Position numbers and translations under genes: made by a program. Below are positions 3,512-46,998 of a stretch of DNA of 64,000 nucleotides, in pieces (positions within the stretch are counted from its first letter, which is position 1; every line of letters starts with the position of its first letter). The notes under the pieces are model-generated. The model had not been told where the DNA came from, ran no database searches, and worked only from the letters and a program-made list of their open reading frames with translations. Source of the stretch: an uncultured Candidatus Saccharibacteria bacterium. Its GTDB lineage: Bacteria; Patescibacteriota; Minisyncoccia; Phycocordibacterales; PCTT01. The stretch spans positions 65,140-129,139 of the forward strand of contig CAZMIM010000001.1 in NCBI GenBank assembly GCA_964566505.1. The letters are read 5' to 3'.

Positions 3512-3550
3512 AAAACCAACGGCTCATATTCAAAATGAGCCGTTGGTTTT
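3512..3550. terminator. Hairpin family 2 (AACGGCTCA-loop-TGAGCCGTT); bidirectional terminator-like
   Basis: aaaccaacggctcatattcaaaatgagccgttggtttt. Confidence 0.7.
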
Positions 3551-3588
3551 AACTAATCGCTAGTGGCTAGTGATTAAAACCTAGCAAA

Positions 3589-4242
3589 CTATCGAGGTGT
3601 TCCTGAGAATGTTTGGAATGTTGTCATTACCTCTACAGCATCTGCTGTTTGGTATGGTACATCTTGAGTAAAATCAAACTCTCGATCTCCGTTGTCTGAG
3701 TGAAGCTTTACATAGTAAAGACTATCAGCAACGGTTCCGCGAAGAAGCGGTACATCTACATCCGCAAATTCACCTGCGTCATAAATGCGTGCCCCAAGAA
3801 TGCTTCCTGGTACTCCCTCGTTATCTTCAAATACTACTACCCATGATGTTCTATCAAGTGATAGTGCTGAGACAGCTACTGTGTCTCCAAAATTTTGATC
3901 TTCTACAGCTAGAACTACTTCTGTTTCAAGTGTTACTGGCTCTGCAGGAGTATCTGAGTGAGTATCTGCCATGTACTCATCCTCCATCATTGTGTCTGCG
4001 TCTTCAAGCGCCTCATCATTTGAACCTGCGTTTCCTGTACCAAATACAAGAAATCCGATTCCAAATCCGATAAGAACACCTAAGATTGCAACAACAATCA
4101 TTTTCTTTGTGTCATTTTGTGTATTATTTTCCATATCTTCTTCAATATTTATATCAGCGAGAGATGGTTCGTGATTGTTGTTATACTCCTCCTGAAGTGA
4201 ATCAACATCCTCATCATTTCCATCAAATGGGATAATTTCCAT
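3589..4242 (-). CDS. Hypothetical single-pass membrane protein
   Basis: One hydrophobic helix (VVAILGVLIGFGIGFLVFG); acidic termini; no recognised domain. Confidence 0.5.
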   Translation of the reverse strand: MEIIPFDGNDEDVDSLQEEYNNNHEPSLADINIEEDMENNTQNDTKKMIVVAILGVLIGFGIGFLVFGTGNAGSNDEALEDADTMMEDEYMADTHSDTPAEPVTLETEVVLAVEDQNFGDTVAVSALSLDRTSWVVVFEDNEGVPGSILGARIYDAGEFADVDVPLLRGTVADSLYYVKLHSDNGDREFDFTQDVPYQTADAVEVMTTFQTFSGTPR

Positions 4243-4358
4243 ACAAAATCTGATAAAACTTATAATTTTCCTAACAATCTGCCCTTATTATAGACCAAAG
4301 TACAAAAAAAGTGCAGAAATGCACTGTAATGATGAAAATTTCAAGAAAAGTCAATAAA

Positions 4359-5210
4359 TTAAACCTCCTTTCCAGCTTTGTAGAGCTGTTCTATTTCTTT
4401 TATAACTTTTGCTTGGTCTTCGTCTGAGAGACCAATATGAGAAAGAACCTGAGGTTTTTCTTTTACAGTTTTACACAAAACAATATCCTTTCCTAAAAGC
4501 CTCTTTTTATTTTCTTGTGAAAGAGTAGTAAGACATGTAATAGGTTGAAGACCACTTTCTTCTATCATTTCTTGTAGATTACCTTTATCAGGATATGACC
4601 ACCCAATAAGTGTAATACCGGCACATTTACCATACGCAATGGCGTTGTGAGTAAATTTTGTATTAGTCATTAACCAAAATGAATGCTTCTTACCGCATGA
4701 CAATATATCCTCACATTTTCCAATCATAAGATCGTCATATCGTGCCTTTACATAAAGTGCCACTTTCATGTCAGACTTCACACCAGGCTTGTTATGAAAC
4801 TTTGCCTCAATGGTTATATAGTTTTCATCATCTTCTGCCAAAATATCTATCTCATGTGTCGCACACTTTCCTTTTAGAATTTTTCCAATCTGTGTTGTAT
4901 AGCCACGTTCAGTAAGAACCCTTTCCATAAACTGCTCAAAAGGGAAACCACTTGGCCCCAAATCCATGATAGCCCTTCTTAGTGAATAGCTAGCTGCAAC
5001 TCCTGCCCTTAGATTGCTTAATTGTGCAAAAGCGGCTTTATATATTTCTTGTGTAGTATCTCCGTCAGATATCTCTTGATTCACAAAAGAAAGCACATCT
5101 GCGACCTCTGTTTCATTCGCACCTGATCTTTTTAAAGAACGCATGAGCTTCTCTTCTCGAAATGGCTCCTGCGTTCCGTCTGCTTTTGTGATTATCACCT
5201 GACGAGACAT
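4359..5210 (-). CDS. ATP-cone domain protein fused to an Mrr-like (PD-(D/E)XK) restriction-endonuclease catalytic domain
   Basis: N-terminal ATP-cone-like segment (ITKADGTQEPFREEKLMRSLKRSG), followed by GY...HEIDILAEDDENYITIEAKFH, which resembles the Mrr_cat D/E-K core. Confidence 0.55.
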   Translation of the reverse strand: MSRQVIITKADGTQEPFREEKLMRSLKRSGANETEVADVLSFVNQEISDGDTTQEIYKAAFAQLSNLRAGVAASYSLRRAIMDLGPSGFPFEQFMERVLTERGYTTQIGKILKGKCATHEIDILAEDDENYITIEAKFHNKPGVKSDMKVALYVKARYDDLMIGKCEDILSCGKKHSFWLMTNTKFTHNAIAYGKCAGITLIGWSYPDKGNLQEMIEESGLQPITCLTTLSQENKKRLLGKDIVLCKTVKEKPQVLSHIGLSDEDQAKVIKEIEQLYKAGKEV

Positions 5211-5213
5211 GTG

Positions 5214-5711
5214 TTATTGATCGTTCTCTGTTTCTTCTACGACCATCTCATCAACGTCTGTATTTCCATCTGCCGGCATTCCCATTGATGCGTCTCCATT
5301 AGACTCTACAATAATCAAATTGATTTTCTTTCCGTTATAAGTCGCATCTACTGTAGCTTGCTCACTAGCACCTACAAGAATACGAAATTCCTTAGGAGTA
5401 ATCACTTGTGCACACATTACATCTTCTGCTGGAGGTGTTACCACAAACGAAAGAGTGATTTGCTCTGGATATGACTCACGAACAAGAGCTTCTGTATAAA
5501 GCTCGTAACATGGGTTTGGAAATTCAATAACCCCTGAATATTCGTGCAAATTATCAGTATATACAAAATCAGCAACAATCTCTGCTGGCATGTATGACAT
5601 TTTGTCGTGATCTTTTTCGGCTTTATCTTCAAAACTCGTATCTGCAACAAGCATTCCGAAAATCACAACCAATACAATTATTAAAACATTTGTGAGTAAA
5701 GATGTTTTCAT
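5214..5711 (-). CDS. Hypothetical exported protein
   Basis: Signal-peptide-like N-terminus when started at MKTSLLTNVLIIVLVVIFG; no domain recognised. Confidence 0.45.
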   Translation of the reverse strand: MKTSLLTNVLIIVLVVIFGMLVADTSFEDKAEKDHDKMSYMPAEIVADFVYTDNLHEYSGVIEFPNPCYELYTEALVRESYPEQITLSFVVTPPAEDVMCAQVITPKEFRILVGASEQATVDATYNGKKINLIIVESNGDASMGMPADGNTDVDEMVVEETENDQ

Positions 5712-5760
5712 ACGTCCTCTCTTAAATAATAAAACCATCTTTAGTATATCACAGGATATA

Positions 5761-6816
5761 TTATGGAAGTATTTCCTCTATAATTCCCCCACCTACACAC
5801 TCATTATCTCGATATAACACCAGAGATTGCCCTACAGCAACAGCTTTTTGAGGTTCATTGAAAGTCGCTGTATTGCCATCAAGCTTGCATGGGAAAAGTG
5901 TTTGTCTATATCGAAGACGCGCCTGATATCCACCATCAGCATTGTCTTTGCGCATAACCATATCGCAAAGCTTTACAGACGATGCGTTGAATACCGGGTT
6001 GTCCTTTCCCTCTTTGTCAGACACGGTGATGGTGTTTTGCTCTATATCTTTTGAAACCACAAAATACGGCTTGTCATTTGGTGTCTTTTTTGTAATTCGG
6101 AAACCTCTTCGCTCACCAATGGTAAAAAATAATGCGCCGTCATGCTCACCAATCACAACACCCTCTTCATTCAAAACATTACCTTTTTCCTCTTTTATAT
6201 AGTGCGTTAGAAAATCCTTCATAGAAATATCTCCAAGAAAACATATTCCCTGACTATCTTTTTTAGAAGCAGTAGAAAGTCCTTCTTTTTCTGCAATGGC
6301 TCTTACTTCGCTCTTTTGGAGATGACCTACTGGAAAGAGAACGTGTGAAAGCTGTTCTTTTGTGAGTGTCCAAAGAAAATACGACTGATCTTTTCCTTCA
6401 TCTGCCCCCGCAACAAGAGCGTCGCCTATATTTTTTGCATAGTGGCCTGTAGCAACATAGTCTGCGCCATTTAGAAGTGCCCACTTTAGAAAACCTCCAA
6501 ACTTTACATATCTATTACACATCACATCTGGATTTGGTGTTCTACCCTTTTTATACTCAGAAATCATATAGTCTGCGACTTCCTCTTTATACTCTTTACT
6601 CAAATCAAGCTCATGAAATGGAATATCTAGATGTGCACATACACGCATTGCATCACGACGCTCTTCTTTCCAGTTACACTCCAAAAACTCCGGGTACCAC
6701 ACCTTTATAAAAACTCCTTCTACGTCGTAGCCCGCTTCTTTTAGTAGATGTGCAGACACAGAAGAATCTACACCACCCGAGAGACCTACATATACTTTTT
6801 TATTCGTGTTACTCAT
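5761..6816 (-). CDS. mnmA: tRNA-specific 2-thiouridylase
   Basis: PP-loop SGGVDSSV, conserved Cys and overall MnmA length. Confidence 0.9.
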   Translation of the reverse strand: MSNTNKKVYVGLSGGVDSSVSAHLLKEAGYDVEGVFIKVWYPEFLECNWKEERRDAMRVCAHLDIPFHELDLSKEYKEEVADYMISEYKKGRTPNPDVMCNRYVKFGGFLKWALLNGADYVATGHYAKNIGDALVAGADEGKDQSYFLWTLTKEQLSHVLFPVGHLQKSEVRAIAEKEGLSTASKKDSQGICFLGDISMKDFLTHYIKEEKGNVLNEEGVVIGEHDGALFFTIGERRGFRITKKTPNDKPYFVVSKDIEQNTITVSDKEGKDNPVFNASSVKLCDMVMRKDNADGGYQARLRYRQTLFPCKLDGNTATFNEPQKAVAVGQSLVLYRDNECVGGGIIEEILP

Positions 6817-6879
6817 AAAAAATAAATTCTAAGCACTAATTTCTAATAACTAAACTGTTTAGAGTTTAGATATTAGCAT

Positions 6880-7554
6880 TTAGGATTTAAGAAAATCATT
6901 CTTTGATTTTCGTTTATTCCATTCTTCTATTTCTTTGTGGTTACCTGAAAGTAATACTTTTGGAACTCTGTATTTCTTTTTCTTATACTCAAATACTTCT
7001 GGTCTGGTATATAGCTCGCTTGATGCATTTCTTTTCTCTTCTTGAGAATCACTGTTTCCAAGAACGCCATCAACGTGTCGAGACACCGCATCAAGTACCA
7101 CCATTGCTGGAAGCTCGCCTCCAGTAAGCACATAAGGGCCGATAGACACCTCTTCTGCATTGGTGATTTTCTTTACTCGTGCATCGATACCTTCATATCG
7201 TCCTGAAATCATTACAATATGATCGTACTTCGAAGCAAGCTCTCGTGCATACGCATTACTAAACTGCTTACCGCTCGGTGAAAAAATGAGTGTTTTTACA
7301 TTCTTTTTCTTTCCAACTGCTTTTTGGAATGCCTTTACGATAGGTTCTACCTGCATCACCATTCCAGGCCCTCCACCATATGGCTTGTCATCGACCTGCT
7401 TGTGCTTGTCGATAGAGTAATCCCGTGGATTATAGAAATTTATAGAAATCTTTTTGTTCTTTATTGCGCGAGCAATAATAGAATCGCCCAAATACGAATC
7501 AAACATTTTGGGAAAGAGTGTGATGATATGAAATTGTTTTTTCTTGTTTTTCAT
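6880..7554 (-). CDS. trmD: tRNA (guanine37-N1)-methyltransferase
   Basis: GGGPGMVM, ISGRYEGIDARV and SIGPYVLTGGELPAMV motifs; start chosen at MKNKKKQFHIITLFP. Confidence 0.9.
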   Translation of the reverse strand: MKNKKKQFHIITLFPKMFDSYLGDSIIARAIKNKKISINFYNPRDYSIDKHKQVDDKPYGGGPGMVMQVEPIVKAFQKAVGKKKNVKTLIFSPSGKQFSNAYARELASKYDHIVMISGRYEGIDARVKKITNAEEVSIGPYVLTGGELPAMVVLDAVSRHVDGVLGNSDSQEEKRNASSELYTRPEVFEYKKKKYRVPKVLLSGNHKEIEEWNKRKSKNDFLKS

Positions 7555-7598
7555 ATGAAAAAGTCGTGGCAAAATAATACCACGACTTTTTGAATTTG

Positions 7599-7817: not shown

Positions 7818-7860
7818 TTGTATCTCCTTTTTAGTGAACGTTTTATTTAATATAGCACAA

Positions 7861-7887
7861 AAGCCACGACGCGCGCGTCGTGGCTTT
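7861..7887 (-). terminator. GC-rich perfect hairpin
   Basis: aagccacgacgcgcgcgtcgtggcttt. Confidence 0.7.
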
Positions 7888-7903
7888 GATTTTAGTGTGG
7901 ACT

Positions 7904-8789: not shown

Positions 8790-8858
8790 AACAATTTATT
8801 ATTTTTGTGTATTTTATTATTTTTTAGCAATAAAAAACGACCCGAGTGGGTCGTTTGT

Positions 8859-9419: not shown

Positions 9420-11354
9420 ATGAGAGAAACTCCACATACTGGAAGCACAATAGAAGGCAAGCTACAGACCACGTCACGAGGCGTGGGCTATCTTTCTTAT
9501 GACGAAGAGGCAAAAGATATAGAAATCCCAGAAGACAAGACGTACACAGCACTTCACGGAGACACTGTCGTGGTGCGTATTACACACAGTGACAGTGAGC
9601 GTGTGTATGGAGAAGTAATAAAAGTATTAGAGCGTGGTGCAAAACTTTTCTCTGGAACACTTGAGCAAGAGGCTGGGCACTTCTTTCTAATGACAGACAA
9701 CCATCGAATTCACCGGGATATTCTTGTGGCACCAGATGAGCGACTAAAAGAAGGATACAAAGCAGTGGTACGCTTCCTTTCTTGGAACACTACACACGAT
9801 GACCCTAAAGGAGAGCTTGTGTCTATTTTGGGTAGAAAGGGAGAACACGAAGCAGAAATGCAATCAATTATCGTGGGGCGTGGGATTGTTTACGACTTCC
9901 CTGTTGAAGTAGAAAAAGAAGCAAAAGAAATCAAAGCAAACGAAGCAAAAATCTTTCAAGATGCAGAAAACGACCCTCGCCGAAAAGATATCCGAGACAT
10001 TCCTACATTCACCATCGACCCAGACAGTGCAAAAGACTTTGATGATGCTCTTTCTATTCGAACACTACAAAATGGAAACCTGGAGATTGGTATTCATATT
10101 GCTGATGTATCTCACTATGTACAAGAAGGAAGTGCGCTAGACCAAGAAGCACAATCACGAGGATTTTCTACATACCTAGTGGATAGAACCATCCCGATGC
10201 TTCCTGAAGTACTTTCAAACGACCTTTGTAGTCTCAACCCGCATGTCGACCGACTCGCCTTTTCTGCAATATTTGAAATGACTCATAGTGGACAAGTAGA
10301 GAGCTCTTGGTATGGAAAAACAATCATTCACTCAGACAAACGGTTTACATACGAAAATGCACAAGAACAGATTGACGCTGGAGATGGTGAATACTCAGAG
10401 CCACTAATAACTCTAAATGGAATAGCAAAAACACTGCGAGCACGAAGATTTTCAAAAGGTGCAGTGGACTTCTCTGATGACGAAGTAAAGTTTGAGCTCA
10501 ATGACAAGGGCGAAGTAATGCGTGTGTATAAAAAAGAGCGGCTTGATACTCACAAACTTGTGGAAGAGTTTATGCTTCTTGCTAACCGCTCTGTAGCAGA
10601 GAAAATAGAAAAACTGTGTGAAAACTCAGGCCACGATCACCTTTTTGTATACAGAATCCACGACCTACCAGATAGAGAAAAACTTTCCGAGCTTGGCACA
10701 TTTCTTAAAGCTCTTGGATACCGATTTGAGGTGCCAAATGAAGTAAGCGGAACAGACCTAAACAAACTACTAGAGCAAGTGAAGGACAAACCAGAGGAAG
10801 GTTTGGTAAATACAGCGCTTATTCGCTCTATGGCAAAGGCTGTATACTCTACCGCTAACAATGGACACTTTGGGCTGGCATTTGAGCACTACACACACTT
10901 CACATCGCCTATCCGTAGATACCCTGACCTTATTGTGCACCGACTTCTATTTGCACATCTTCATAACGAGAATATTACTCAAAGAGAGATAGACCTCTAT
11001 GAAAGCATTATCTCTAAATCAACTGACAAAGAGATTAATATTATGCAAGCAGAGCGTGAGAGTATTAAATACAAGCAAGTAGAGTTCCTAAAAGATCGTG
11101 TGGGTGAGACATTTGATGTATTAGTAACAGGAGTTTCAGACTTTGGACTCTTTGTGGAAGAGAAAGAAACACGAGCACAGGGACTCATTGCTATTAGAAA
11201 TCTAGGAAATGATTTCTTTGAGCTTCGAGAGAAACAATTTGCAATAGTTGGTAAAAGCAGTGGTCAAAAGTTTACACTCGGGCAAACACTCAAAGCAAAG
11301 CTCACTGGAGCAGACCTAGACAAGCGTCAGCTCGACTTCCGTCTCCAAAACTAA
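9420..11354 (+). CDS. rnr: Ribonuclease R (RNase II/R family, with C-terminal S1 domain)
   Basis: RNB-domain motifs (DPDSAKDFDDALS, HFTSPIRRYPDL) and a C-terminal S1-like region. Confidence 0.9.
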   Translation: MRETPHTGSTIEGKLQTTSRGVGYLSYDEEAKDIEIPEDKTYTALHGDTVVVRITHSDSERVYGEVIKVLERGAKLFSGTLEQEAGHFFLMTDNHRIHRDILVAPDERLKEGYKAVVRFLSWNTTHDDPKGELVSILGRKGEHEAEMQSIIVGRGIVYDFPVEVEKEAKEIKANEAKIFQDAENDPRRKDIRDIPTFTIDPDSAKDFDDALSIRTLQNGNLEIGIHIADVSHYVQEGSALDQEAQSRGFSTYLVDRTIPMLPEVLSNDLCSLNPHVDRLAFSAIFEMTHSGQVESSWYGKTIIHSDKRFTYENAQEQIDAGDGEYSEPLITLNGIAKTLRARRFSKGAVDFSDDEVKFELNDKGEVMRVYKKERLDTHKLVEEFMLLANRSVAEKIEKLCENSGHDHLFVYRIHDLPDREKLSELGTFLKALGYRFEVPNEVSGTDLNKLLEQVKDKPEEGLVNTALIRSMAKAVYSTANNGHFGLAFEHYTHFTSPIRRYPDLIVHRLLFAHLHNENITQREIDLYESIISKSTDKEINIMQAERESIKYKQVEFLKDRVGETFDVLVTGVSDFGLFVEEKETRAQGLIAIRNLGNDFFELREKQFAIVGKSSGQKFTLGQTLKAKLTGADLDKRQLDFRLQN

Positions 11355-11381
11355 GTTTGGGAGAGTCAGACTCTCCCAAAC
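11355..11381. repeat. REP-like palindrome, family 1
   Basis: gtttgggagagtcagactctcccaaac, between convergent rnr and the LOG gene. Confidence 0.9.
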
Positions 11382-11382
11382 A

Positions 11383-11417
11383 AAAACCAACGGCTCAAGA
11401 GTGAGCCGTTGGTTTTT
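11383..11417. terminator. Hairpin family 2
   Basis: aaaaccaacggctcaagagtgagccgttggtttttt. Confidence 0.75.
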
Positions 11418-11423
11418 TATATA

Positions 11424-12146
11424 CTATTCTTCTCGAAGTGGTGCGTTTTTGATTATTTCAAGCGCCTCCTCGTCTGTGTCTATGATGGTGTATAGATCTA
11501 TATCAGACTCATCAATAGTTTTGTAATCTTTTGCGAGTGTCTCTCTTATAAACCCATCAAGCCGTCCCCAATACTCTTTTCCTACAAGAATAATAGGTAC
11601 GCGAGGAATCTTTCTAGTTTGAACAAGTGTGAGAATCTCAAAGAACTCGTCCATTGTTCCAAACCCTCCTGGGAAATAGACATATGCCTCTGCTGAAAAT
11701 GTGAGAGTTACTTTTCGTGAAAAGAAATAATAGAAAGACATAGAGTCCTCTACATATGGATTCACTACTTGTTCAAAAGGAAGCTCAATATTGAGTCCAA
11801 GTGAATTACCTGGCCCATCCGCCTCTTTTGCTCCCCTGTTTGCACCTTCCATAATTCCAGGCCCTCCTCCTGTGATAACTGTGTATCCGAGCTCATCTAC
11901 AATCTTATAAGCAAGGTCTCGTGCTCTTTGGTAGTGCTCGTTATCTTCAGGAAATCGTGCTGAACCAAAAATAGTTACTGAACGAGGATGGTTTTTAATA
12001 AACTCAAATCCATCATGAAATTCTCTTGTAATGCGCCCCACGCGCTCATCGATTTCTTTTTGAACATCATCACGCTTTAGCGGTTCTGTATGAAGCTTTA
12101 CTGAAGGAACATTTATTATTTTTTTGTTTGGATCGATTGGTGTCAT
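11424..12146 (-). CDS. LOG family protein (cytokinin riboside 5'-monophosphate phosphoribohydrolase-like, TIGR00730)
   Basis: ITGGGPGIMEGANRGA and PGGFGTMDE motifs. Confidence 0.85.
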   Translation of the reverse strand: MTPIDPNKKIINVPSVKLHTEPLKRDDVQKEIDERVGRITREFHDGFEFIKNHPRSVTIFGSARFPEDNEHYQRARDLAYKIVDELGYTVITGGGPGIMEGANRGAKEADGPGNSLGLNIELPFEQVVNPYVEDSMSFYYFFSRKVTLTFSAEAYVYFPGGFGTMDEFFEILTLVQTRKIPRVPIILVGKEYWGRLDGFIRETLAKDYKTIDESDIDLYTIIDTDEEALEIIKNAPLREE

Positions 12147-12208: not shown

Positions 12209-12463
12209 TTATTTTTTAAGTGTATCTTTTAGATTTTTATATAAAAATCTTCTACCCCATCCTGATTTTAAATATTTTTCTCTTCGCATAGCGTTAGATT
12301 GGGAAAGATACATTTCTAAGTATACCAGCTTCCAAGGTCTATTGCCTTTAGTTGATAAAACCTTACCTTCATTATGCAGTCTTAATCTTTCCTTTATATC
12401 ACTAGAATAACCAATATATAACTTACTATCTTTTTTACTTTTTAATACATAGACGCTATGCAT
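12209..12463 (-). CDS. GIY-YIG nuclease family protein (UPF0213-like)
   Basis: VYVLKSKKDSKLYIGYSSDIKERLRLHNEG matches the GIY-YIG core. Confidence 0.8.
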   Translation of the reverse strand: MHSVYVLKSKKDSKLYIGYSSDIKERLRLHNEGKVLSTKGNRPWKLVYLEMYLSQSNAMRREKYLKSGWGRRFLYKNLKDTLKK

Positions 12464-14841: not shown

Positions 14842-15132
14842 ATGATCTCTAACAAAATGTTTGGGAGAACCCGGTTCTCCCAAACATTGACAAAGGAACA
14901 TCGAAGTAGTAGTTTTTGGAAAACTGTACAAACCAAACAAACGGTGAATCAAGTGGCTAAAAGAAAAGGGCCGGGTAAAAGAAAGGGTAAGTCTTCCCGA
15001 CACCCTCGCAATGTGTCCAAAAAAGTCGAAAGATGGAGAGTCAATGTTAGTTATTATGGGAGCAGATATGATCCGATAAAAATTCAGCACGGCCACAATC
15101 CAAGACCTTTCAAAAAGAAGAGGAAAATCTGA
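14842..15132 (+). CDS. Possible small Lys/Arg-rich protein (96 aa); doubtful
   Basis: ORF overlaps the REP-like palindrome at 14859-14885 and is very basic; its stop TGA overlaps the next ATG (ATGA). No recognisable family. Confidence 0.2.
   Translation: MISNKMFGRTRFSQTLTKEHRSSSFWKTVQTKQTVNQVAKRKGPGKRKGKSSRHPRNVSKKVERWRVNVSYYGSRYDPIKIQHGHNPRPFKKKRKI
14859..14885. repeat. REP-like palindrome, family 1 (variant centre)
   Basis: gtttgggagaacccggttctcccaaac. Confidence 0.9.
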
Positions 15133-15271: not shown

Positions 15272-15296
15272 GAGTTGAATTTACTTCCACTAAAAA

Positions 15297-15335
15297 GCCC
15301 GCCCAAATTTCACATAGTGAAACTTAGGCGGGCTT
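15297..15335. repeat. Hairpin family 3 (AGCCCGCCTAAnTTTCAC-N3-GTGAAAnTTAGGCGGGCT)
   Basis: agcccgcccaaatttcacatagtgaaacttaggcgggct. Confidence 0.75.
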
Positions 15336-15353
15336 TATTGTTTATTTGCAAAA

Positions 15354-15380
15354 GTTTGGGGAAGTCAGACTTCCCCAAAC
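15354..15380. repeat. REP-like palindrome, family 1 (variant)
   Basis: gtttggggaagtcagacttccccaaac. Confidence 0.9.
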
Positions 15381-17440: not shown

Positions 17441-17479
17441 AGCCCGCCTAATTTTCACGCTGTGAAATTTAGGCGGGCT
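17441..17479. repeat. Hairpin family 3
   Basis: agcccgcctaattttcacgctgtgaaatttaggcgggct, between rpmF and the upstream gene. Confidence 0.8.
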
Positions 17480-18451: not shown

Positions 18452-18559
18452 ACTAGGATGGTGTAAGGTTCATATTATTTTTCGGTATAATAATACACCA
18501 TATTGGCTATATTGTCAATATTTATACACAATATAAAAAAGGCTCAACAGAGCCCTAGT

Positions 18560-18588
18560 GAACGGCTCATTTTCAAAATGAGCCGTTC
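18560..18588. terminator. Hairpin family 2
   Basis: gaacggctcattttcaaaatgagccgttc, downstream of rnhB. Confidence 0.7.
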
Positions 18589-18591
18589 AAT

Positions 18592-19167
18592 TTATAGATT
18601 TTTCAGAAAGCTTTTTCGGTGAATAGCACACTTTCCATGCTTTTTGACTGCTTTGAGGTGAGCTTTCGTGCCGTAGCCCTTATGAGTTTCAAATCCATAC
18701 TTGGGATACTTCTCCCCCATTTTCTCCATATATCTATCCCTGTGAACCTTTGCAACCACAGAAGCAAGCGATATGACTGGCTTCTTCTCGTCTCCTTTTA
18801 TAATAGTTTCTTGTTTTTTGAATCGTGCTGGCGCAGAAAGTCGCCCATCTAAAAATACTCCTGCATCTTTATCTACTCGTGAGAGTGTGCCACGAATCGC
18901 TTTTTTAATAGCACGCTCTATACCGTTTTTATCTATCTCTTTTGCAGAGACACTTCGAATATAAAAATTAATCAATCCTGACTTTCTCCACCCAACAGCT
19001 CGCTCATACCACTGCTCCCTTTTAAACTCCGTCATCTTTTTTGAGTCTTTTACTCCGCGAAGCAAATACGGAGAAAATCCCTTAGGAAGAACCACTGCAC
19101 ACACCGTAACAGGCCCCGCCACAGGACCTCTCCCTACTTCATCAATACCTACAACATATTTCGCCAT
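18592..19167 (-). CDS. rnhB: Ribonuclease HII
   Basis: VGIDEVGRGPVAGPVTVCAVV N-terminal motif. Confidence 0.9.
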   Translation of the reverse strand: MAKYVVGIDEVGRGPVAGPVTVCAVVLPKGFSPYLLRGVKDSKKMTEFKREQWYERAVGWRKSGLINFYIRSVSAKEIDKNGIERAIKKAIRGTLSRVDKDAGVFLDGRLSAPARFKKQETIIKGDEKKPVISLASVVAKVHRDRYMEKMGEKYPKYGFETHKGYGTKAHLKAVKKHGKCAIHRKSFLKNL

Positions 19168-27864: not shown

Positions 27865-28305
27865 TTATTTAAATGGAAGAATGTCTTTAAACAAATCTGT
27901 ATTTCGTGAAAGTCGAGATACTCCACATGAATCAAGTCCTGAAGAATTTTCTAAAGTCGGGTCTGCACCGACAGACAGAAGAAATTTTACAACCTCTACT
28001 CTGCCTTCATAGATTGCAAACATTAAAGCTGTCCATCCATTATAGCCTTGAATATTTACATCGGCACCAAGAGACAATAACTCTTCTGCAACACTCTGGT
28101 GAATTGCCATGAGCCAAGCAATCCAACCAAAACGCTCAGCAAGCTCTATGTCCACATAGTAGTGATACATAAGTCCTTCATAAATTTCTTCAAGTGTTGC
28201 CTCTCTGTTTTTGAAATACTGTTTAAATTTTGATTGTCCACCCTTACAGGCAGAATAATCTTCCAAGAAATCGCCTGTTATTTTCATGATGGTTATAAGG
28301 TTCAA
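27865..28305 (-). CDS. Ankyrin-repeat protein
   Basis: GADVNIQGYNGWTALMFAIYEGRVEVVKFLLSVGADP ankyrin repeats. Confidence 0.7.
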   Translation of the reverse strand: MNLITIMKITGDFLEDYSACKGGQSKFKQYFKNREATLEEIYEGLMYHYYVDIELAERFGWIAWLMAIHQSVAEELLSLGADVNIQGYNGWTALMFAIYEGRVEVVKFLLSVGADPTLENSSGLDSCGVSRLSRNTDLFKDILPFK

Positions 28306-28353: not shown

Positions 28354-28386
28354 TCAACGGCTCATTTTGAAAATGAGCCGTTGCTT
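28354..28386. terminator. Hairpin family 2
   Basis: caacggctcattttgaaaatgagccgttgctttt. Confidence 0.7.
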
Positions 28387-28421: not shown

Positions 28422-28495
28422 GGGCCTGTAGCTCACTTGGCTAGAGCGCCTCACTTGCACTGAGGAGGTAGCAGGTTCGATTCCTGTCAGGTCCA
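28422..28495 (+). tRNA. tRNA-Ala (anticodon TGC); CCA not encoded
   Basis: Cloverleaf folded by eye: acceptor GGGCCTG/CAGGTCC, anticodon loop CTTGCAC, T-loop TTCGATT; terminator at 28508-28546. Confidence 0.9.
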
Positions 28496-28558
28496 CATAA
28501 AATGAAAAAGCACCCTACTTACAATGTAAGTGGGGTGCTTTTTTTGAGATTATTAGTC

Positions 28559-41407: not shown

Positions 41408-43345
41408 CTAGTTACCAATCCTGATTTCCACCCGACGATTCTTCGCCCGATTTTCAGCAGTGTTGTTATTGGCATTCGGATCAACCGGTTGCCTTTGGCC
41501 CATACCCGCAACACGAGTACGAGTAGTGTTGAAGTTCACTGGATCCTTGGTGTAGAACCACGCTTGGATAGTCTGCGCACGGCGCAGTGCCAAGCCGTCG
41601 TTAAATGCGGGATCACCAGTGTTGTCGGTATGTCCGACAAACTCAATCAAGTAACTCTGGTTCAAGCTCGTGAGCTGCTGATACAACCCATCGAGAACCG
41701 GAATCGATTCGGGCGCGAGCTCAGCGCTCCCAGACCGAAATTTGATTGAATCAAAATCACCACTCGCGCGAACGTTGGTAATGGCGGCATTCGGGTCATA
41801 ACTGCGCGACAACTTGACCGCAAGGTCAGGTCGTCGGTTTGCTACAGCTTCCAAATATCGTGTATTAACAGCTTCACTGTAAGGCACGTATTCTCCGTAT
41901 TCATTCGGATAGTTAAGTGCCAACACGTCACCATAACGTTCGTATGTGTTTTTATACAAACTCACGTTGTATCCAACACCAAAGAGCTCAAGCGTATGTG
42001 CAAGCGAGTGAACCTGTGATCCACCAACCGACACATTTTGACTCAATCGAGAATCAAAGATTTCTGTGCCTGTGTGCATTTCTGCCCAATAAGCACCGTC
42101 CTTCTGCTTGAGAACTTTTGCAGTAACTTCACTTGCCTCGAGCAAAGCTTCGCTGTTTGTTAGAACCTGATCGTTTGCTTCCGAAGAAGCTTCAATAATA
42201 GCTTCAATAACACCTGGGTTATCTCTCGCCCATCCACGATGCACAAGCAAAATGCTCGGCATCTGACCAGGATTGTCTCTTGTAGACCACATAGTCACCA
42301 CACCTCCACGCTGTTCAACAACGTTACGGTCTTCCGGTGTCCATACGGATACAGAGTCAACACAAACAGTCCGACGTTCTCCCGTCAACTCTGCTTCACC
42401 GGCAGAATTAACAGTTACAATCGGGCGCTCTTCGCAACGCTCCGAGACATAAGCCTTCGTAGCGTCAGAGTTTGAAGTTGTGGCATAGAAGTTGATACAA
42501 TCCGGATTGTATGTTTCAGGATCCGGGTTGATACAAACCCCATTGAGACTTGCCCAATCTACAACAATATTCTGATCATCGTCCATGATCACAGTTGCGG
42601 TGAGGAGGCCTCGCGCATTCCGTGAATCACGTAATACTTCAGGAGGAGCCATGAACTGATCTTCGCCATAGCTCCGTCCAAAAGAATGGACAATATCAAA
42701 ATTGTTTTCTTCAGGAAGTCTCTCAACTCCACCTGCGATTGCGGTTGTGTAGAAGGTTCCTCCTCCACCCATCACAACAATCGCAGCCGCTCCTTCGGTT
42801 GGATACATATCACCTTCGGCATAACGCTGAGCAAACAATACTGCGTTCTTGATCATCTGCGGTACATCATCAAGTACCTTGACTTCAAGACGAATATTGT
42901 CAGCACGGTTACGGCGAAGTGCCTGCTCCATCAAACTTCCACGAGCGGTAATAGCACCGCCATCACGTGATTCCTGGGCAGCACCATTGGCTGCAAAGAA
43001 GCCCTTCTGAGCCCCCCACGGAATCACCTCGATAGGCATTGTGTAATCTGCGCTCATGGGAGTAGTGCCTGTCCACAAAGAACGAGGTTCTACGGTATAA
43101 GGCACCGTGCTCACATCCTGGTTAATAACCTGGACTTCTTCATGAACACGGGAAGCCGCACGATTCTTCTCAGGCAACATCGACTTGGCAAAGCCAAGAA
43201 TGCTGTCACCAAAGAAAAAAGTGACGGCGACCAAAACCAGCAGTCCAAGGACTACTTTGGTTTTGGTAGGAATATCAACAGTGGTAGACATGTGAGTGTC
43301 CTCTTGTTTCGTGTGTGTTTCGTGTGTGCGACGTATATCAGTCAA
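41408..43345 (-). CDS. Membrane-anchored putative substrate-binding protein (~450 aa) fused to a C-terminal OmpA/MotB-like peptidoglycan-binding domain
   Basis: N-terminal TM segment; C-terminal ~110 aa FRSGSAELAPESIPVLDGL...IEFVGHTDNTGDPAFNDGLALRRAQTIQAWF...RRVEIRI is a canonical OmpA_C domain; sits directly upstream of the permease/ATPase. Confidence 0.55.
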   Translation of the reverse strand: MTDIRRTHETHTKQEDTHMSTTVDIPTKTKVVLGLLVLVAVTFFFGDSILGFAKSMLPEKNRAASRVHEEVQVINQDVSTVPYTVEPRSLWTGTTPMSADYTMPIEVIPWGAQKGFFAANGAAQESRDGGAITARGSLMEQALRRNRADNIRLEVKVLDDVPQMIKNAVLFAQRYAEGDMYPTEGAAAIVVMGGGGTFYTTAIAGGVERLPEENNFDIVHSFGRSYGEDQFMAPPEVLRDSRNARGLLTATVIMDDDQNIVVDWASLNGVCINPDPETYNPDCINFYATTSNSDATKAYVSERCEERPIVTVNSAGEAELTGERRTVCVDSVSVWTPEDRNVVEQRGGVVTMWSTRDNPGQMPSILLVHRGWARDNPGVIEAIIEASSEANDQVLTNSEALLEASEVTAKVLKQKDGAYWAEMHTGTEIFDSRLSQNVSVGGSQVHSLAHTLELFGVGYNVSLYKNTYERYGDVLALNYPNEYGEYVPYSEAVNTRYLEAVANRRPDLAVKLSRSYDPNAAITNVRASGDFDSIKFRSGSAELAPESIPVLDGLYQQLTSLNQSYLIEFVGHTDNTGDPAFNDGLALRRAQTIQAWFYTKDPVNFNTTRTRVAGMGQRQPVDPNANNNTAENRAKNRRVEIRIGN

Positions 43346-44432
43346 GGTGCTTTAGGTATTTACTACCCCCTTGACGATTACGCCCCTTGTTTTGGGTTTT
43401 CTGTTCATCAACATCATCAGGAAGAGGGATTTCAATCACTCCTCTAGAGGATTTGTCGATGGATATTGCTTTTTTCCCTTCTCCTCTTGCGATATCTGGA
43501 ATTTCCAGACCTGAATCCATCAGCATAGCAATCAAGGACGGGTCATCGTATGACATTGGGTTTTCAGCATTACCGAACCCTACGATAACCTTTTCTTGAA
43601 TACCAATGAGAGCTTCGATTTTTGCCGCATCAGCTTTAAATTGCTGAAACGCCATGTCCTCGGTAGCCATCAAAGACTGATTTTCACCCAGAGTATCAAG
43701 ATCGGGGTCTAATGATAATTCCCCAACGATGTCTTGAATTACGTCTTGTACCTCACCAGTGGTTTTTAAGCCACTAGCAGTTACCTTAAGTCCTTCAAGA
43801 GATACTTCTGTGTGAGTTTCGAGATGCTTGAGAAGGAGAAGCATATTTTCAATCTCCTCTTTTTTCTCCTCAAACCCACGAATAGATTCAACACGCGGCT
43901 GAAGTCGCCTTTTCAGGCTTTTGAGAACACTAGGATTAGCTTTTTCTTGCTTCTCCATTTCAGTCTTCAGTTCAAGGTATACCTCGTCCCGAACACTAAT
44001 GTCCTCCTTCAGCCTTGTGTTTACTTTTGTGAGAGCAACCTCCTCCAAACGACGAATACCTGAAGTGATTTTACGAAGTCGCTTTTCGTGCGCCTCAATA
44101 ATTTCATCAGGTGTTCTATTTGGTGTTGGTTTTTCTACAACTTCTTCCTCAGTAAGACCAGCGATTTTGCGAACAAACTGTAGATACAGCATCGCAAAAT
44201 GAGTCAGTGCATCTTGTGCACTGCCATGTTGTTCGCTTGTTCTCTGAAAGAAGTAGGTTGCAAGTGCAACAAGTAGGGTCAAAACTCCAGCGATCTGAAA
44301 CCCGGAAAGGCTCGCAACAAGAACCCAGAGTATCTGGATCATTACGAGCGGGAAAAGAATAGCAACACTGATCCCAACGTTTCGCTCCCGCTTATCACGA
44401 AAGACCCGCCGACGATCTTTTTTGCTACTCAT
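43338..44432 (-). CDS. Hypothetical membrane protein: basic N-terminus, two TM helices, long cytoplasmic coiled-coil domain
   Basis: ATG 44432 with GGAGG RBS, 1 nt after the stop of the upstream gene (translational coupling). Confidence 0.5.
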   Translation of the reverse strand: MSSKKDRRRVFRDKRERNVGISVAILFPLVMIQILWVLVASLSGFQIAGVLTLLVALATYFFQRTSEQHGSAQDALTHFAMLYLQFVRKIAGLTEEEVVEKPTPNRTPDEIIEAHEKRLRKITSGIRRLEEVALTKVNTRLKEDISVRDEVYLELKTEMEKQEKANPSVLKSLKRRLQPRVESIRGFEEKKEEIENMLLLLKHLETHTEVSLEGLKVTASGLKTTGEVQDVIQDIVGELSLDPDLDTLGENQSLMATEDMAFQQFKADAAKIEALIGIQEKVIVGFGNAENPMSYDDPSLIAMLMDSGLEIPDIARGEGKKAISIDKSSRGVIEIPLPDDVDEQKTQNKGRNRQGGSKYLKHLD

Positions 44433-44433
44433 A

Positions 44434-45270
44434 TTATTCCTCCGAATTTCCGAGGTTGAAGTCCGACTCAATCTCGTTTATACGAGCAGCCATGAGCTTT
44501 GCAGCTGCTTGGAATTGCATGCTCGTATTTACGGTATCAGCCTGGCGTAAAGAAAGTTCATCTTCGAGCTCAGGTAGCCCAGCGTCAATTTGTGACGCTT
44601 CAGCAACCAACTTTTCGGATGTTTTTTTCGCCTCATCAATCAAGCGCTTGGCTTCAGCTTCTGCCTCTGCCACAACCTCTTGCGCCCTGAGGCGCTTCGA
44701 TGACGCGTCTTCCTTTGCTCTTGCAATAGCTCGTTCCGCTTCTGCTTCACGTTTTGCAAGCGCTTTCAGTGCCTCATCACCAAAAAGAGACTTTTCTTGA
44801 TCCAAGCGCGCACGATGTGCGCCAAGATCTTCTGCAAGCTCCTTTTTGCCAATGTTTCGTTTTGCAAGCATCTTCATTACCAAGGCAACGAGTGCTTCTG
44901 GTCCAGCAGCAAGCTCTGCGAACTCCTTTTGCACATCAAGCAGTTGCTCGACAGGCGTTGGTGGAGTAGCGGGGTCAGATTCAAAAACAGTCTCCGCCAG
45001 ACTAACCAGCAAAGGATTGTTTTCGAGAACATTCCCCGCACCTTCAGCAAGCTCTGCATGTGTCTGTGTCAAAACTTCATCAGAAGAAGACGAGTCCACA
45101 CTCGGTGCTTTGTGCTGAAGATCTCGCAGTATCTGCTCAACCTCATCAGCTGCCGAAGAGGACTCTCCTCCAGCGGCATCTGGCTCCAGATTAGAACTTT
45201 CGTTCTCTCTGATAATAGTCGGTCCCCATCCTTCAGTGAGGAAAGAGACAAACTTGCTTTTTGGTGCCAT
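44434..45270 (-). CDS. Hypothetical acidic coiled-coil protein (278 aa) with EA-repeat region
   Basis: AEAERAIARAKEDA ... VVAEAEAEAKRLIDEAKK coiled-coil/EA repeats; GC about 55-60%. Confidence 0.5.
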   Translation of the reverse strand: MAPKSKFVSFLTEGWGPTIIRENESSNLEPDAAGGESSSAADEVEQILRDLQHKAPSVDSSSSDEVLTQTHAELAEGAGNVLENNPLLVSLAETVFESDPATPPTPVEQLLDVQKEFAELAAGPEALVALVMKMLAKRNIGKKELAEDLGAHRARLDQEKSLFGDEALKALAKREAEAERAIARAKEDASSKRLRAQEVVAEAEAEAKRLIDEAKKTSEKLVAEASQIDAGLPELEDELSLRQADTVNTSMQFQAAAKLMAARINEIESDFNLGNSEE

Positions 45271-45364
45271 TTCGATTTTGCGTTTGTGTTAAGTATTGCA
45301 CGAAAAAGTTTTCCGTAAGGTACTTAACTGTTTCGTGTGTGCTCAGTTCTCAATATTTAGAAGA

Positions 45365-45682
45365 CTAATCTTCATCAAATCTGAGATTTCTAGCACGATG
45401 TGCAGTCCAACCCTCCTTTCTTCTTTCAAATTGGGAGAGTACAACGAAACTTTTCTTTTCAGGCAACGGGGTTTTTTCATCATCAGGAAACCATTCCGAC
45501 GAAAGAAACGTGAGAGAACCGAGATGATTTAGGCTTGAATCTTCAGGCCAACAAACAAATCGTTTCTGTTCACCATCTTTTCCGTGAGGAAAAATATCTC
45601 CAATAACTGCTATTACCTCGTTACACGGAATTTCGTTGCTCTGCACATCATTAGCAGTACTTCTGCTAGCTTTATGCATCAC
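45365..45682 (-). CDS. Hypothetical protein (105 aa)
   Basis: ORF only; no domain recognised. Confidence 0.3.
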   Translation of the reverse strand: MMHKASRSTANDVQSNEIPCNEVIAVIGDIFPHGKDGEQKRFVCWPEDSSLNHLGSLTFLSSEWFPDDEKTPLPEKKSFVVLSQFERRKEGWTAHRARNLRFDED

Positions 45683-45852
45683 ATTAGTCCGTGGATTTTA
45701 GTGAAAAGTTTTGTGAAAGATTTTTTTAGGTTCAATATCCTCCTTTTTGTCAATAAACAAAAAACTAGTTATGTGATTGTCAATGAGCATCTTGATTTCT
45801 GAGTTTACAAGAACACAGAAAAAGATATTCGCGACAGTCTAACATAATAAAG

Positions 45853-45881
45853 TTGATATGTCAATATATGTGTGCTATAAT
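45853..45881 (+). promoter_or_regulatory. Near-consensus sigma70 promoter TTGATA-17-TATAAT
   Basis: TTGATA (45853-45858), 17-nt spacer, TATAAT (45876-45881), ~20 nt upstream of the ORF at 45902. Three TGTCAAT motifs lie between 45746 and 45865. Confidence 0.5.
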
Positions 45882-45901
45882 ACAGATAGAACAAAACAAC
45901 G

Positions 45902-46144
45902 GTGCTCCTTATGGAAATCATCTTCGGATTTGCAGTTCAGATACTCACCCTATGGCTTGCGATTTTTGCTATCTTTCTGTCGTTTCGCAAACATCAGTGG
46001 TTTCTGAATCAACACAAAAGATTCTTCAGATACCTCATGAGACGCTTTGGCACTTTCTTCAGAAAGCACCGAGCCATCATTCTAGCCTTCATTGCAGGAA
46101 TCATTTTTACCCTCTGGGTAATCCAAAACACCAACGTGCTTTAG
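45902..46144 (+). CDS. Small hypothetical membrane protein (80 aa, 2 TM)
   Basis: Promoter upstream; terminator hairpin 46123-46155 (aacaccaacgtgc...gtacgttggtgtt) immediately after. Confidence 0.45.
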   Translation: MLLMEIIFGFAVQILTLWLAIFAIFLSFRKHQWFLNQHKRFFRYLMRRFGTFFRKHRAIILAFIAGIIFTLWVIQNTNVL

Positions 46145-46164
46145 TACGTTGGTGTTTTCTCTTA

Positions 46165-46191
46165 GTTTGGGAGAGTCAGACTCTCCCAAAC
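46165..46191. repeat. REP-like palindrome, family 1
   Basis: gtttgggagagtcagactctcccaaac upstream of tonB. Confidence 0.9.
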
Positions 46192-46274
46192 TACTTCCCT
46201 TTTTAATATAAATAGGTGTATTCTATATATAGACGCACTCGCACAATCCATTCACTAAATACGTGAGGTATCTT

Positions 46275-46934
46275 ATGGCACTCAAGAAGTCGCCAAAAGC
46301 CGACCTTAAAAAACGTTATCCGCTTTTTCTGGAAATCGGCATAGTGTTCACTCTCGGTATCCTTATTGTTGCGTTTCGACTCGACATGAGTGCTGAGAAC
46401 GATTTCAACATCGACCTTCCTGATCAGGAAGTGGTTCAGATGGAAGAAATCACCCAAACAGAACAGGTACAGAAGCCACCGCCCCCGCCACGTCCGCCAG
46501 TACCTGTAGAGGTTCCCAATGACGAGGTGCTCGATGAAATCGAGATTGACCTGGGTGATATCTTTGACCTTGATGAAGAACTACCGCTTCCGCCCCCTCC
46601 TCCACCCGCAGTGGAAGAAGAGGAAGAAGAGCCGGAAATCTTTGTCATCGTCGAGCAAATGCCCGAACTGATTGGAGGTCTTGCAGAACTCCAAAAAAAG
46701 ATTACCTATCCAGAAATCGCCAAAAAAGCTGGCGTGGAAGGTCGGGTATATCTTCAGTTTGTGGTAGATGAACAAGGCAATGTCCAAGACCCTGTGGTTA
46801 CTCGTGGCATCGGTGCAGGATGTGATGAAGAAGCAATCAAGGCAATCCTGACTGCAAAGTTCAAACCGGGCATACAGAGAGGAAAGGCCGTTAAGGTCAA
46901 ATACAGCCTTCCTATCACCTTCAAGCTCAAGTAG
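46275..46934 (+). CDS. tonB: Energy transducer TonB (N-terminal TM anchor, Pro-rich spacer, TonB_C domain of the FCB/Bacteroidota type)
   Basis: IFVIVEQMPELIGGLAELQKKITYPEIAKKAGVEGRVYLQFVVDEQGNVQDPVVTRGIGAGCDEEAIKAILTAKFKPGIQRGKAVKVKYSLPITFKL; PPPPPRPPVPVEVP linker; AGGT RBS before ATG 46275. Confidence 0.85.
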   Translation: MALKKSPKADLKKRYPLFLEIGIVFTLGILIVAFRLDMSAENDFNIDLPDQEVVQMEEITQTEQVQKPPPPPRPPVPVEVPNDEVLDEIEIDLGDIFDLDEELPLPPPPPPAVEEEEEEPEIFVIVEQMPELIGGLAELQKKITYPEIAKKAGVEGRVYLQFVVDEQGNVQDPVVTRGIGAGCDEEAIKAILTAKFKPGIQRGKAVKVKYSLPITFKLK

Positions 46935-46959
46935 CAGGAGCTACTCCACTCTCACAATC

Positions 46960-46998
46960 AAACGGCTCAGGAGTTCAAAACCTGAGCCGTTTTTTGTT
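46960..46998 (+). terminator. Hairpin family 2; tonB terminator
   Basis: aaacggctcaggagttcaaaacctgagccgttttttgttttt. Confidence 0.8.

Follow-up and report, generated by a model that had tools for sequence, protein, structure and literature searches.

Five hairpins with invariant nine-base arms in a 64-kb stretch of Patescibacteria DNA: a proposed dispersed palindromic signal that may be read by a small winged-helix protein and reused at gene ends

Why should five hairpins that look like intrinsic transcription terminators, scattered over a 64-kb stretch of DNA, share the same stem? The stretch (contig CAZMIM010000001.1 of assembly GCA_964566505.1, positions 65,140 to 129,139) belongs to the metagenome-assembled genome (MAG) of an uncultured Candidatus Saccharibacteria bacterium; it was analysed at its full length of 64,000 nt and is called the window below. 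A first-pass annotation had proposed that the five hairpins, here called family 2, are copies of one dispersed element rather than independent terminators, that they are reused as terminators, and that they join a second palindrome (family 1) in a composite module. We give about even odds (roughly 50%) to the following answer: family 2 is a dispersed palindromic signal whose arms are recognised sequence-specifically, most plausibly by a family of small winged helix-turn-helix (wHTH) proteins, and which has been co-opted in this genome as 3'-end and terminator hairpins.

We searched the whole window for exact matches to the pattern AACGGCTCA-N(2-20)-TGAGCCGTT. Five were found, with cores at 3518-3544, 11389-11410, 18561-18587, 28356-28382 and 46961-46991, numbered copies 1 to 5 in this order; sorted by length, the arm spacings are 4, 9, 9, 9 and 13 nt. 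The annotation had placed the hairpins correctly to within 1-6 nt, since its boundaries included the extended stems. None of 100 dinucleotide-preserving shuffles of the window gave any match. The exact 9-mer occurs ten times in the window, all ten as arms of the five hairpins and none in coding sequence. With one mismatch allowed, single words in the window were at chance level (23 matches in total, ten of them the arms, vs 11.6 expected), and allowing up to two mismatches per arm gave no further credible copy there; neither decayed copies nor lone half-sites were found in the window. Family 2 is real and highly non-random.

These statistics effectively refute the simplest alternative, that five ordinary terminators arose independently and came to the same stem by coincidence or through convergent composition (AA...TT ends being favoured beside A/T tracts), and we regard it as extremely improbable. 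The stem does arise sporadically in generic AAAA-stem-TTTT terminators, as matches in viruses and in bacteria outside the Candidate Phyla Radiation (CPR) show. However, the window holds five identical 18-nt arm sets in 64 kb, its other terminators have stems unrelated to family 2, and copies 3 and 4 terminate no gene.

Across the five copies, none of the 90 arm positions is substituted, while the loops (4-13 nt) and flanks vary and the bases next to the arms differ between copies. This bears out the proposal of a single dispersed element, and the loops are variable as listed: TATTCAAAA in copy 1, AGAG in copy 2, TTTTCAAAA in copy 3, TTTTGAAAA in copy 4 and GG-AGTTCAAAA-CC in copy 5. The loop of copy 4 is the reverse complement of that of copy 3; copy 4 is therefore inverted. 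Locus-specific pairing beyond the arms lengthens the stems to 12-16 bp, and their folding energies lie between -18.4 and -25.2 kcal/mol on both strands in all five copies; the unpaired centres left after stem extension are 3, 3, 4, 7 and 9 nt. The elements are 22-39 bp long, and all five in the 64 kb are intergenic single hairpins. Since the arms are constant while loops and flanks drift, the arm sequence itself is constrained. Were only the structure under selection, compensatory changes in the arms would be permitted, and copies made recently would still have the same loops. Neither is seen, which points to arms that are recognised by their sequence.

Where the copies lie, and what follows each hairpin, bears on whether they stop transcription. 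Copy 1 (3512-3550; 16-bp stem, AAAACCAACGGCTCAT / ATGAGCCGTTGGTTTT) is 44 nt past the stop codon of a minus-strand DUF7282 gene (3589-4242) and upstream of a PD-(D/E)XK gene (2641-3441). It folds at -25 kcal/mol and is terminator-like: on the minus strand, 8 of the 12 nt behind the core are T. Copy 2 (11382-11417; 16-bp stem) fills the gap between the convergent genes for RNase R (9420-11354, plus strand) and a LOG-family protein (11424-12146, minus strand). It has 8 T in 12 nt on both strands and, because both sides are T-rich, looks like a bidirectional terminator. Copy 5 (46960-46992; 12-bp stem, followed by TTTTGTTTTT) is likewise terminator-like, 10 of the 12 plus-strand nt behind its core being T; it lies 26 nt past the stop codon of a plus-strand TonB-C gene (46263-46934), convergent with a minus-strand gene at 47078-47482.

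The other two copies have different surroundings. Copy 3 (18559-18589; 14-bp stem, 3-nt loop) starts 4 nt past the stop codon of the minus-strand RNase HII gene (18592-19167) and is without a T-tract there, having only 3 T in 12 nt. Directly downstream of it is a separate, canonical terminator hairpin at 18539-18556 (AGGGCTC-TGTT-GAGCCTT, then TTTTTT), after which comes a near-consensus promoter at 18518-18490. Copy 3 therefore lies inside the 3' untranslated region (UTR) of RNase HII and is not its terminator. Copy 4 (28355-28383) stands between the start of a minus-strand ankyrin-repeat gene (27865-28305) and a plus-strand tRNA-Ala gene (28422-28496), upstream of the latter and at no gene's 3' end, with 6 T in 12 nt on the plus strand.

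In total, four of the five copies (1, 2, 3 and 5) lie 4-44 nt past a stop codon, four of the five have, on one strand, 6 or more T among the 12 nt that follow the core, and three of the four at gene 3' ends carry the T-rich tail on the strand of the preceding gene. A terminator scan did not call copies 1-3, their T runs being absorbed into the extended stems. Judging from these features, family 2 plausibly terminates transcription at three or four of its five sites. The claim that the hairpins are reused as terminators is thus only partly supported: copies 1, 2 and 5, with their 8-10 T in 12 nt, look like intrinsic terminators, and the claim does not suit copy 3, which has a separate terminator downstream, or copy 4, which is downstream of no gene. 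Support for copy 2 comes from three CPR loci with the gene order S16, RNase R, SMC, RNase III, NusB, RNase HII, DnaE in common with the window. In two of these three, the 3' end of the RNase R gene has an ordinary bidirectional terminator with a stem of its own; copy 2 therefore stands at the place of a terminator. The named close relatives of the window's RNase R are all from Paceibacterota, Taylorbacteria or the "Patescibacteria group", and the best non-identical one is only 60% identical, so that the source MAG appears to be without a close sequenced relative. These relatives, along with the TonB-C and ankyrin domains encoded beside the hairpins, mark the host as a Patescibacterium and rule out the Streptococcus-like host that GC content and strand bias had suggested.

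To see how widespread the arms are, we scanned one genome per species for the bare 18-nt arm pattern. The scan gave at least 120 loci, and the figures that follow are among the matches listed. Named CPR lineages account for 54 of 120 loci (Saccharibacteria, Paceibacterota, Nomura-, Yanofsky-, Wolfe-, Taylor-, Kaiser-, Staskawicz-, Zambryski-, Jackson- and Berkelbacteria), and unclassified MAGs or WS2 for 8 more. At least 11 CPR genomes have 2-4 exact copies, and these multi-copy families are the robust part of the cross-genome result. The CPR copies are mostly intergenic, 0-70 nt past a stop codon, with 3-19 nt between the arms. The non-CPR matches are single, orthologous AAAA-stem-TTTT terminators (7 in Collinsella, 4 in enterobacteria, 2 in Domibacillus), and a complete scan of 2.9 million viral contigs gave 28 matches, all single and generic. 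In the 8-kb blocks fetched around the matches, extra 9-mers occur at 0.050 per kb in CPR vs 0.0069 in other taxa and a chance expectation of 0.0076. In one MAG (loci L102 and L116), a copy after a wHTH gene and two dispersed copies share extended sequence.

A candidate for a protein that reads the arms comes from a CPR subclass of sites with a fixed 12-nt centre, AACGGCTCA-AAT(ACC/GGG)NNNAAA-TGAGCCGTT. Some sites of this class lie within a gene, in frame as TAQ[IM][PG]xNEP. The gene's product is a small protein whose N-terminal part, which holds these residues, is disordered and whose C-terminal part is a winged helix. We fetched 80 metagenome loci solely by two peptides of the wHTH domain, and 79 of them carry the palindrome AACGGCTCA-N12-TGAGCCGTT within this gene, in frame and with 0-2 mismatches. 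Its codons are frozen: Thr is ACG in 71 of 71 cases, Ala GCT in 71/71, Gln CAA in 71/71, Glu GAG in 71/71 and Pro CCG in 67/71. In the same genes, the synonymous codons of an invariant peptide, LHVSDATATRYL, vary freely, GCT being the rarest of its Ala codons. The constraint in the motif is therefore on the nucleotides, and this control rules out TAQIPxNEP as a conserved peptide motif. The site is also kept at the same position across homologs that are only ~40-60% identical. In the converse test, with loci picked solely by the hairpin, a wHTH gene was present in 13 of 62 CPR loci among the matches listed. At six of these 13 (L009, L021, L050, L053, L100 and L102), a hairpin with a loop of 6-15 nt stands 3-34 nt past the wHTH stop codon.

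The wHTH family has at least 2,136 members, all named ones from CPR, annotated as hypothetical protein or "winged helix-turn-helix regulator". Its domain of ~75 residues resembles the winged helices of DeoR, Lrp and ArsR, a fold that binds double-stranded DNA, and contains no catalytic domain. Short forms of 92-116 aa (L050 1313-1591, L053 5574-5906, L102 1599-1922, L021 2605-2955) have an N-terminal transmembrane helix and a basic stretch (RRRGRRK) in place of the long disordered tail. Since the basic stretch follows the transmembrane helix, the positive-inside rule would put the wHTH domain in the cytoplasm, which suggests a membrane-tethered cytoplasmic DNA-binding protein.

Put together, the 9-bp arms (AACGGCTCA / TGAGCCGTT) would be a recognition signal common to Patescibacteria, and its likeliest reader the CPR-specific small wHTH protein, whose own gene carries the palindrome or precedes it. 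As is typical of operators, the half-sites are invariant under nucleotide-level selection, at the arms in the window and at synonymous sites in the wHTH gene. In the source genome, family 2 would have multiplied into intergenic sites, mostly just past stop codons. Once transcribed, a copy would fold into a hairpin of 12-16 bp, and hairpins with a T-tract behind them (those of copies 1, 2 and 5, plus that of copy 4 when read on the plus strand) would act as intrinsic terminators, copy 2 in both directions. We infer all three of the binding of the wHTH protein to the arms, the stop of transcription at the hairpins and the mechanism of copying.

Several observations weigh against this answer. Genomic linkage by itself does not demonstrate that the wHTH protein binds the arms, and the 64 kb of the window encode no homolog of this protein. 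Dimeric wHTH proteins usually require half-sites at a fixed distance, and the distance is fixed (at 12 nt) only at the in-gene site; the arms of the dispersed copies are 4-13 nt apart in the window and 3-19 nt apart in other genomes. Copies 3 and 4 are left unexplained by termination, and T-rich tails follow 42% of the CPR copies outside the 12-nt class vs 75% of the non-CPR matches; termination is therefore not the conserved function. Single CPR matches may partly be due to chance, CPR genomes being rich in perfect hairpins. Finally, the 59 kb of the three syntenic CPR loci contain no family-2 hairpin, and the arms do not recur outside the wHTH locus in 562 kb around wHTH genes. The dispersal is therefore sporadic, which fits a selfish element as well.

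Such an element would be a palindrome like the repetitive extragenic palindromic (REP) sequences or the miniature inverted-repeat transposable elements (MITEs), copied in trans by some enzyme that recognises the arms and tolerated at gene 3' ends, the places least damaged by an insertion; any termination there would be incidental. The wHTH gene would then be the element's own, like the REP-associated tyrosine transposase (RAYT) gene flanked by REPs. Beyond the sporadic CPR distribution, with multi-copy bursts in a minority of genomes, this would account for the preference of the copies for convergent and 3' intergenic sites, a preference also seen in the pneumococcal repeats SPRITE, RUP and BOX (PMC3049150). 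Copy 4 is at a site without obvious function, the palindrome stands on both sides of the wHTH gene in ~30 loci, and the extended sequence common to the copies of L102 and L116 also agrees with copying. We nevertheless think a purely selfish origin unlikely. No transposase, Y1/RAYT or other recombinase is found near any window copy; Pfam and NCBIfam scans of the 60 non-overlapping open reading frames (ORFs) of the window detected no Y1 transposase, and the sole recombinase is a serine recombinase at 62-64 kb. Target-site duplications are absent, the flanks being inverted repeats (the stem extensions) or unrelated sequence and never direct repeats, and the winged helix of 75 residues has no catalytic domain. 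Recent copies would share their loops, whereas these differ in length and sequence while the arms show zero change. The retention of the in-gene site at the same position in distant homologs points instead to a long-term host function.

Comparison with known repeats gives a similar picture. SPRITE is a terminator-like dispersed repeat of the pneumococcus, enriched at the 3' ends of coding sequences and between convergent genes (PMC3049150). Like family 2, it consists of a short dispersed stem plus a T-rich tract near coding-sequence 3' ends or convergent genes, is thought to be co-opted as a terminator, has no identified transposase or target-site duplication and coexists with other small repeat families. 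It differs in occurring only in the pneumococcus and S. mitis and in being AT-rich and conserved over its whole length, an 18-bp duplex plus a long U-tract. Family 2 conserves no more than its GC-rich 9-bp arm, with variable loops and tails; it is phylum-wide and linked to one protein gene, and it has no sequence similarity to SPRITE. With the REP/REPIN-RAYT systems of Enterobacteria and Pseudomonas, family 2 has in common that short multi-copy intergenic palindromes, often 3' of genes, have stems conserved within the genome, and that repeat copies stand on either side of a dedicated protein gene. However, the linked gene here encodes a winged helix of ~75 residues and not a Y1 transposase of the IS200/IS605 type, there is neither a GTAG-like 5' tetranucleotide nor a REPIN doublet, and the arms are identical across very distant lineages instead of co-diverging with an enzyme. 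MITEs are ~50-500 bp long and make target-site duplications, in contrast to the 22-39 bp and absent duplications of family 2. Judged from the window alone, family 2 is a new terminator-like repeat of the REP/SPRITE kind; in the way it works it is closest to SPRITE and REP elements, and it belongs to neither.

It is also conceivable that the arms are read in RNA, with the transcribed hairpin serving as a processing, stability or regulatory site for an RNA-binding protein or an RNase such as RNase III. Copies do lie in 3' UTRs, copy 3 between a stop codon and the true terminator, and pairing peculiar to each locus often lengthens the stems inward as well as outward, as structural selection would give. 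RNase III and KhpA are both encoded in the window. In L144, L167 and L190, the loop of the in-gene site and that of a second site downstream (described below) are reverse-complementary and could pair over 30 nt within one transcript. We still consider recognition at the RNA level improbable, more so than a selfish origin. Selection on structure alone allows compensatory changes, which family 1 shows, but the arms of family 2 never vary; copy 4 is in no known transcript, and sequence-specific reading of a perfect A-form stem would be unusual. No Rfam family matches at the family-2 hairpins or in the wHTH loci, and the Rfam matches elsewhere are confined to tRNAs, RNase P RNA, LOOT RNA and a SAM riboswitch.

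The surroundings of the wHTH gene raise a further alternative. About 30 wHTH loci have, 620-1160 nt downstream of the in-gene site, a second palindrome of 30 nt, mostly inverted and non-coding (sites 1 and 2 are at 10273-10302 and 10950-10979 in L167, at 10144 and 11301 in L144, and at 9769 and 10710 in L138), and its centre is sometimes the exact reverse complement of that of the first site. This two-site layout resembles a pair of recombinase core sites, or long-range RNA pairing. Between the wHTH gene and site 2 there is also a conserved non-coding element (CCTCGGGGCTGTTTCCGCTA...), present as an inverted pair with copies ~275 nt apart. The inverted pair or contig stops are seen in L125, L127, L132, L135, L138-L140, L143, L146, L152, L158, L161, L165, L174 and L092, and in L129 and L147. 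Many metagenome contigs stop 300-700 nt after the wHTH gene, and those of L129 and L147 stop 86 nt past the first copy of this element. Both ends of the 693-kb contig Ga0265296_1000007 carry the same inverted-repeat arm, each beside an outward-facing wHTH paralog. The contig breaks are thus attributable to the long inverted repeat after the wHTH gene.

Site-specific recombinase sites of the Xer, Cre or invertase kind consist of inverted arms, here 9-12 bp, round a short asymmetric centre; dif has the layout 11-6-11 and loxP 13-8-13. The 30-nt class in other CPR genomes, with conserved arms and a variable 6-nt centre, has just this arm-centre-arm layout, and its sites often form an inverted pair 0.6-1.2 kb apart round the 3' half of the wHTH gene. 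Large serine recombinases are encoded within a few kb of the wHTH gene in 8 of the 80 loci, and contigs often break in this region. We nevertheless regard recombination at these sites as very unlikely. The window copies, whose unpaired centres range over 3-9 nt, have no constant crossover region and do not resemble dif-, lox- or hix-like core sites, and paired sites often have unlike centres, between which recombination would be blocked. The sites have no consistent link to recombinases, none of which is beside any window copy, and the contig breaks are better explained by the separate inverted repeat.

Other explanations for this locus were rejected. An rRNA operon after the wHTH gene was considered as the cause of the contig breaks, and neither a sequence like the 16S 5' end nor any rRNA was found there. 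GC skew gave no signal for a location at the origin or terminus of replication. Hairpin telomeres do not fit, contigs that pass the inverted repeat running on into different genes. Integron attC sites, CRISPR remnants, parS sites and LexA boxes fit family 2 in neither sequence nor layout. The wHTH loci also contain variant hairpins with symmetric arm changes, AATGGCTCA-N6-TGAGCCATT and AACACCTCA-acgcgt-TGAGGTGTT, ~230 nt upstream of the in-gene site (L127 2308, L130 2396, L131 1411, L135 10207, L152 8431, L187 3530 and L138 1869; L134 3555 and L179 482). In L138, one of these directly follows a tRNA gene.

A 9-mer occurring as inverted pairs at gene ends also recalls the words that bias DNA uptake towards self-DNA in competent bacteria, the DNA uptake sequence (DUS) of Neisseria and the uptake signal sequence (USS) of Pasteurellaceae. 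Like family 2, these systems have a word of 9-12 nt that forms terminator-like hairpins at gene ends when present as an inverted pair, in a naturally competent lineage. CPR as a whole conserve the com genes, Saccharibacteria have been shown to undergo natural transformation (PMC10633639), and the window has a gene for DprA. Our literature search found no description of a CPR uptake sequence, of the 9-mer motif or of palindromic repeat families in CPR. We consider an uptake word highly unlikely here. Single DUS and USS words are abundant, including in coding DNA, at roughly 1 per kb, whereas the window has 1 per 6.4 kb, all of them hairpin arms and none in coding sequence. Lone words are not enriched in the window and only weakly in other CPR loci, where ~8 distant ones were found vs ~3 expected. 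The linked wHTH protein, the candidate reader, appears cytoplasmic by the positive-inside rule and would thus not be a surface receptor.

Returning to recognition of the arms by the wHTH family, its nearest parallels are DNA-binding proteins with their chromosomal sites: ParB-parS, Noc-NBS, MatP-matS, RTP-Ter of B. subtilis and HrcA-CIRCE. Like family 2, all have invariant palindromic arms, scattered sites and a copy in or near the gene of a small DNA-binding protein. Some short wHTH forms are predicted to be membrane-anchored, as Noc associates with the membrane, and three of the window copies share the 9-N9-9 layout of CIRCE. On the other hand, the known sites have fixed spacing and are not 3'-end hairpins, the wHTH protein has no homology to ParB, Noc, MatP, RTP or HrcA, the arm sequence is unrelated, and the pairing of protein and site here is a candidate one, drawn from genomic linkage. 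A bolder version of our answer is that the arms are the cognate chromosomal site of a Patescibacteria-specific wHTH family, a phylum-wide and undescribed protein-site pair of the ParB-parS, Noc-NBS or RTP-Ter kind. The site would have multiplied at gene ends in some genomes, where it doubles as a terminator, and a master site would be kept in the wHTH coding sequence by DNA-level selection. We hold this version only tentatively, at rather less than even odds. In it the wHTH family would comprise long forms with a disordered tail and short forms with a membrane anchor.

How does family 1, the other palindrome of the window, relate to these hairpins? Its form is GTTTGGGRRRGTC-N-GACYYYCCCAAAC, with seven full copies in the window. 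The copies at 3484-3510 (GTTTGGGAAGGTC-A-GACCTTCCCAAAC) and 11355-11381 (GTTTGGGAGAGTC-A-GACTCTCCCAAAC) abut family-2 copies 1 and 2, as the first-pass annotation had it, and the 23-nt junction CCCAAACAAAAACCAACGGCTCA is identical at both. A third copy at 47020-47046, followed by a degenerate one at ~47050-47076, starts 28 nt after copy 5. Family 1 thus adjoins three of the five family-2 copies, at copy 5 in the same order on the minus strand and with a longer spacer. Two further copies stand alone (14859-14885 and 50287-50313), and the remaining two lie beside other hairpins: that at 15354-15380 beside a hairpin of a third family (15289-15341), and that at 46165-46191 beside a hairpin at 46126-46158. 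The arms of family 1 change together so that the hairpin is kept (GGGAAGGTC, GGGAGAGTC, GGGAGAACC and GGGGAAGTC, each with a matching partner; the co-varying variants are AAGGTC, AGAGTC, AGAACC and GAAGTC). Read on the minus strand, the family-1 copies at 3484 and 11355 have terminator-like scores.

The proposed composite module of a REP sequence and a terminator survives in a narrower form. Copies 1 and 2, with their identical junction, are one duplicated family-1/family-2 composite. Since family 1 also occurs beside the family-3 hairpin and the hairpin at 46126-46158, and alone, the pairing is not specific to family 2; it reflects family 1 settling beside terminator hairpins in general. The co-occurrence of the two families is likewise a feature of the window, family 1 not being enriched in the other CPR loci that match the family-2 pattern; family 1 is therefore lineage-specific.

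The two neighbouring hairpin kinds deserve a description of their own. The third shared-stem family has two intergenic sites, 15289-15341 and 17441-17479 (AGCCCGCC[CT]AA[AT]TTTCAC / GTGAAA..GGCGGGCT), and at the first of these the family-1 copy starts 13 nt later. The hairpin at 46126-46158 (AAAACACCAACGTGCT / AGTACGTTGGTGTTTT), with a family-1 copy after it, is similar in its outer part to the extended family-2 stem AAAACCAACGGCTCA and could be either a diverged relative or an unrelated terminator.

Among the other genes of the window, the serine recombinase, one of the large kind, is encoded by an ORF of 565 aa with an N-terminal resolvase domain at 62223-63920 on the minus strand, beside a plus-strand tRNA-Leu gene (62369-62451). 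The GC content is 0.50 in the 62-64 kb region vs ~0.41 elsewhere in the window, and the boundary of an integrated element may lie there. DprA, which mediates competence and recombination, is encoded at 56602-57474 (plus strand) and ParB at 61216-62271 (minus strand); a parS-like site would read TGTTTCACGTGAAACA. A minus-strand ORF of 84 aa with a GIY-YIG domain (12209-12463) lies between the LOG-family gene and SMC. In one syntenic locus (L121) LOG and SMC are adjacent, so that the ORF looks like an inserted, homing-endonuclease-like gene; in another (L122) a different gene is directly beside SMC.

Patescibacteria make up a large share of bacterial diversity, yet their cis-regulatory and chromosome-organising signals are almost undescribed. 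Through its invariant arms, the nucleotide-level selection in the wHTH gene and the dispersal at gene ends, family 2 offers a concrete candidate for the first pair of signal and reader in this group. If it were only a selfish REP-like repeat, it would be an ordinary new repeat family. In practical terms, family 2 could serve as a recognisable 3'-end or terminator motif for annotating some CPR genomes, and it marks a locus that repeatedly breaks metagenome assemblies. It would also provide a defined DNA probe and protein for work in the Saccharibacteria, which are cultivable and transformable.

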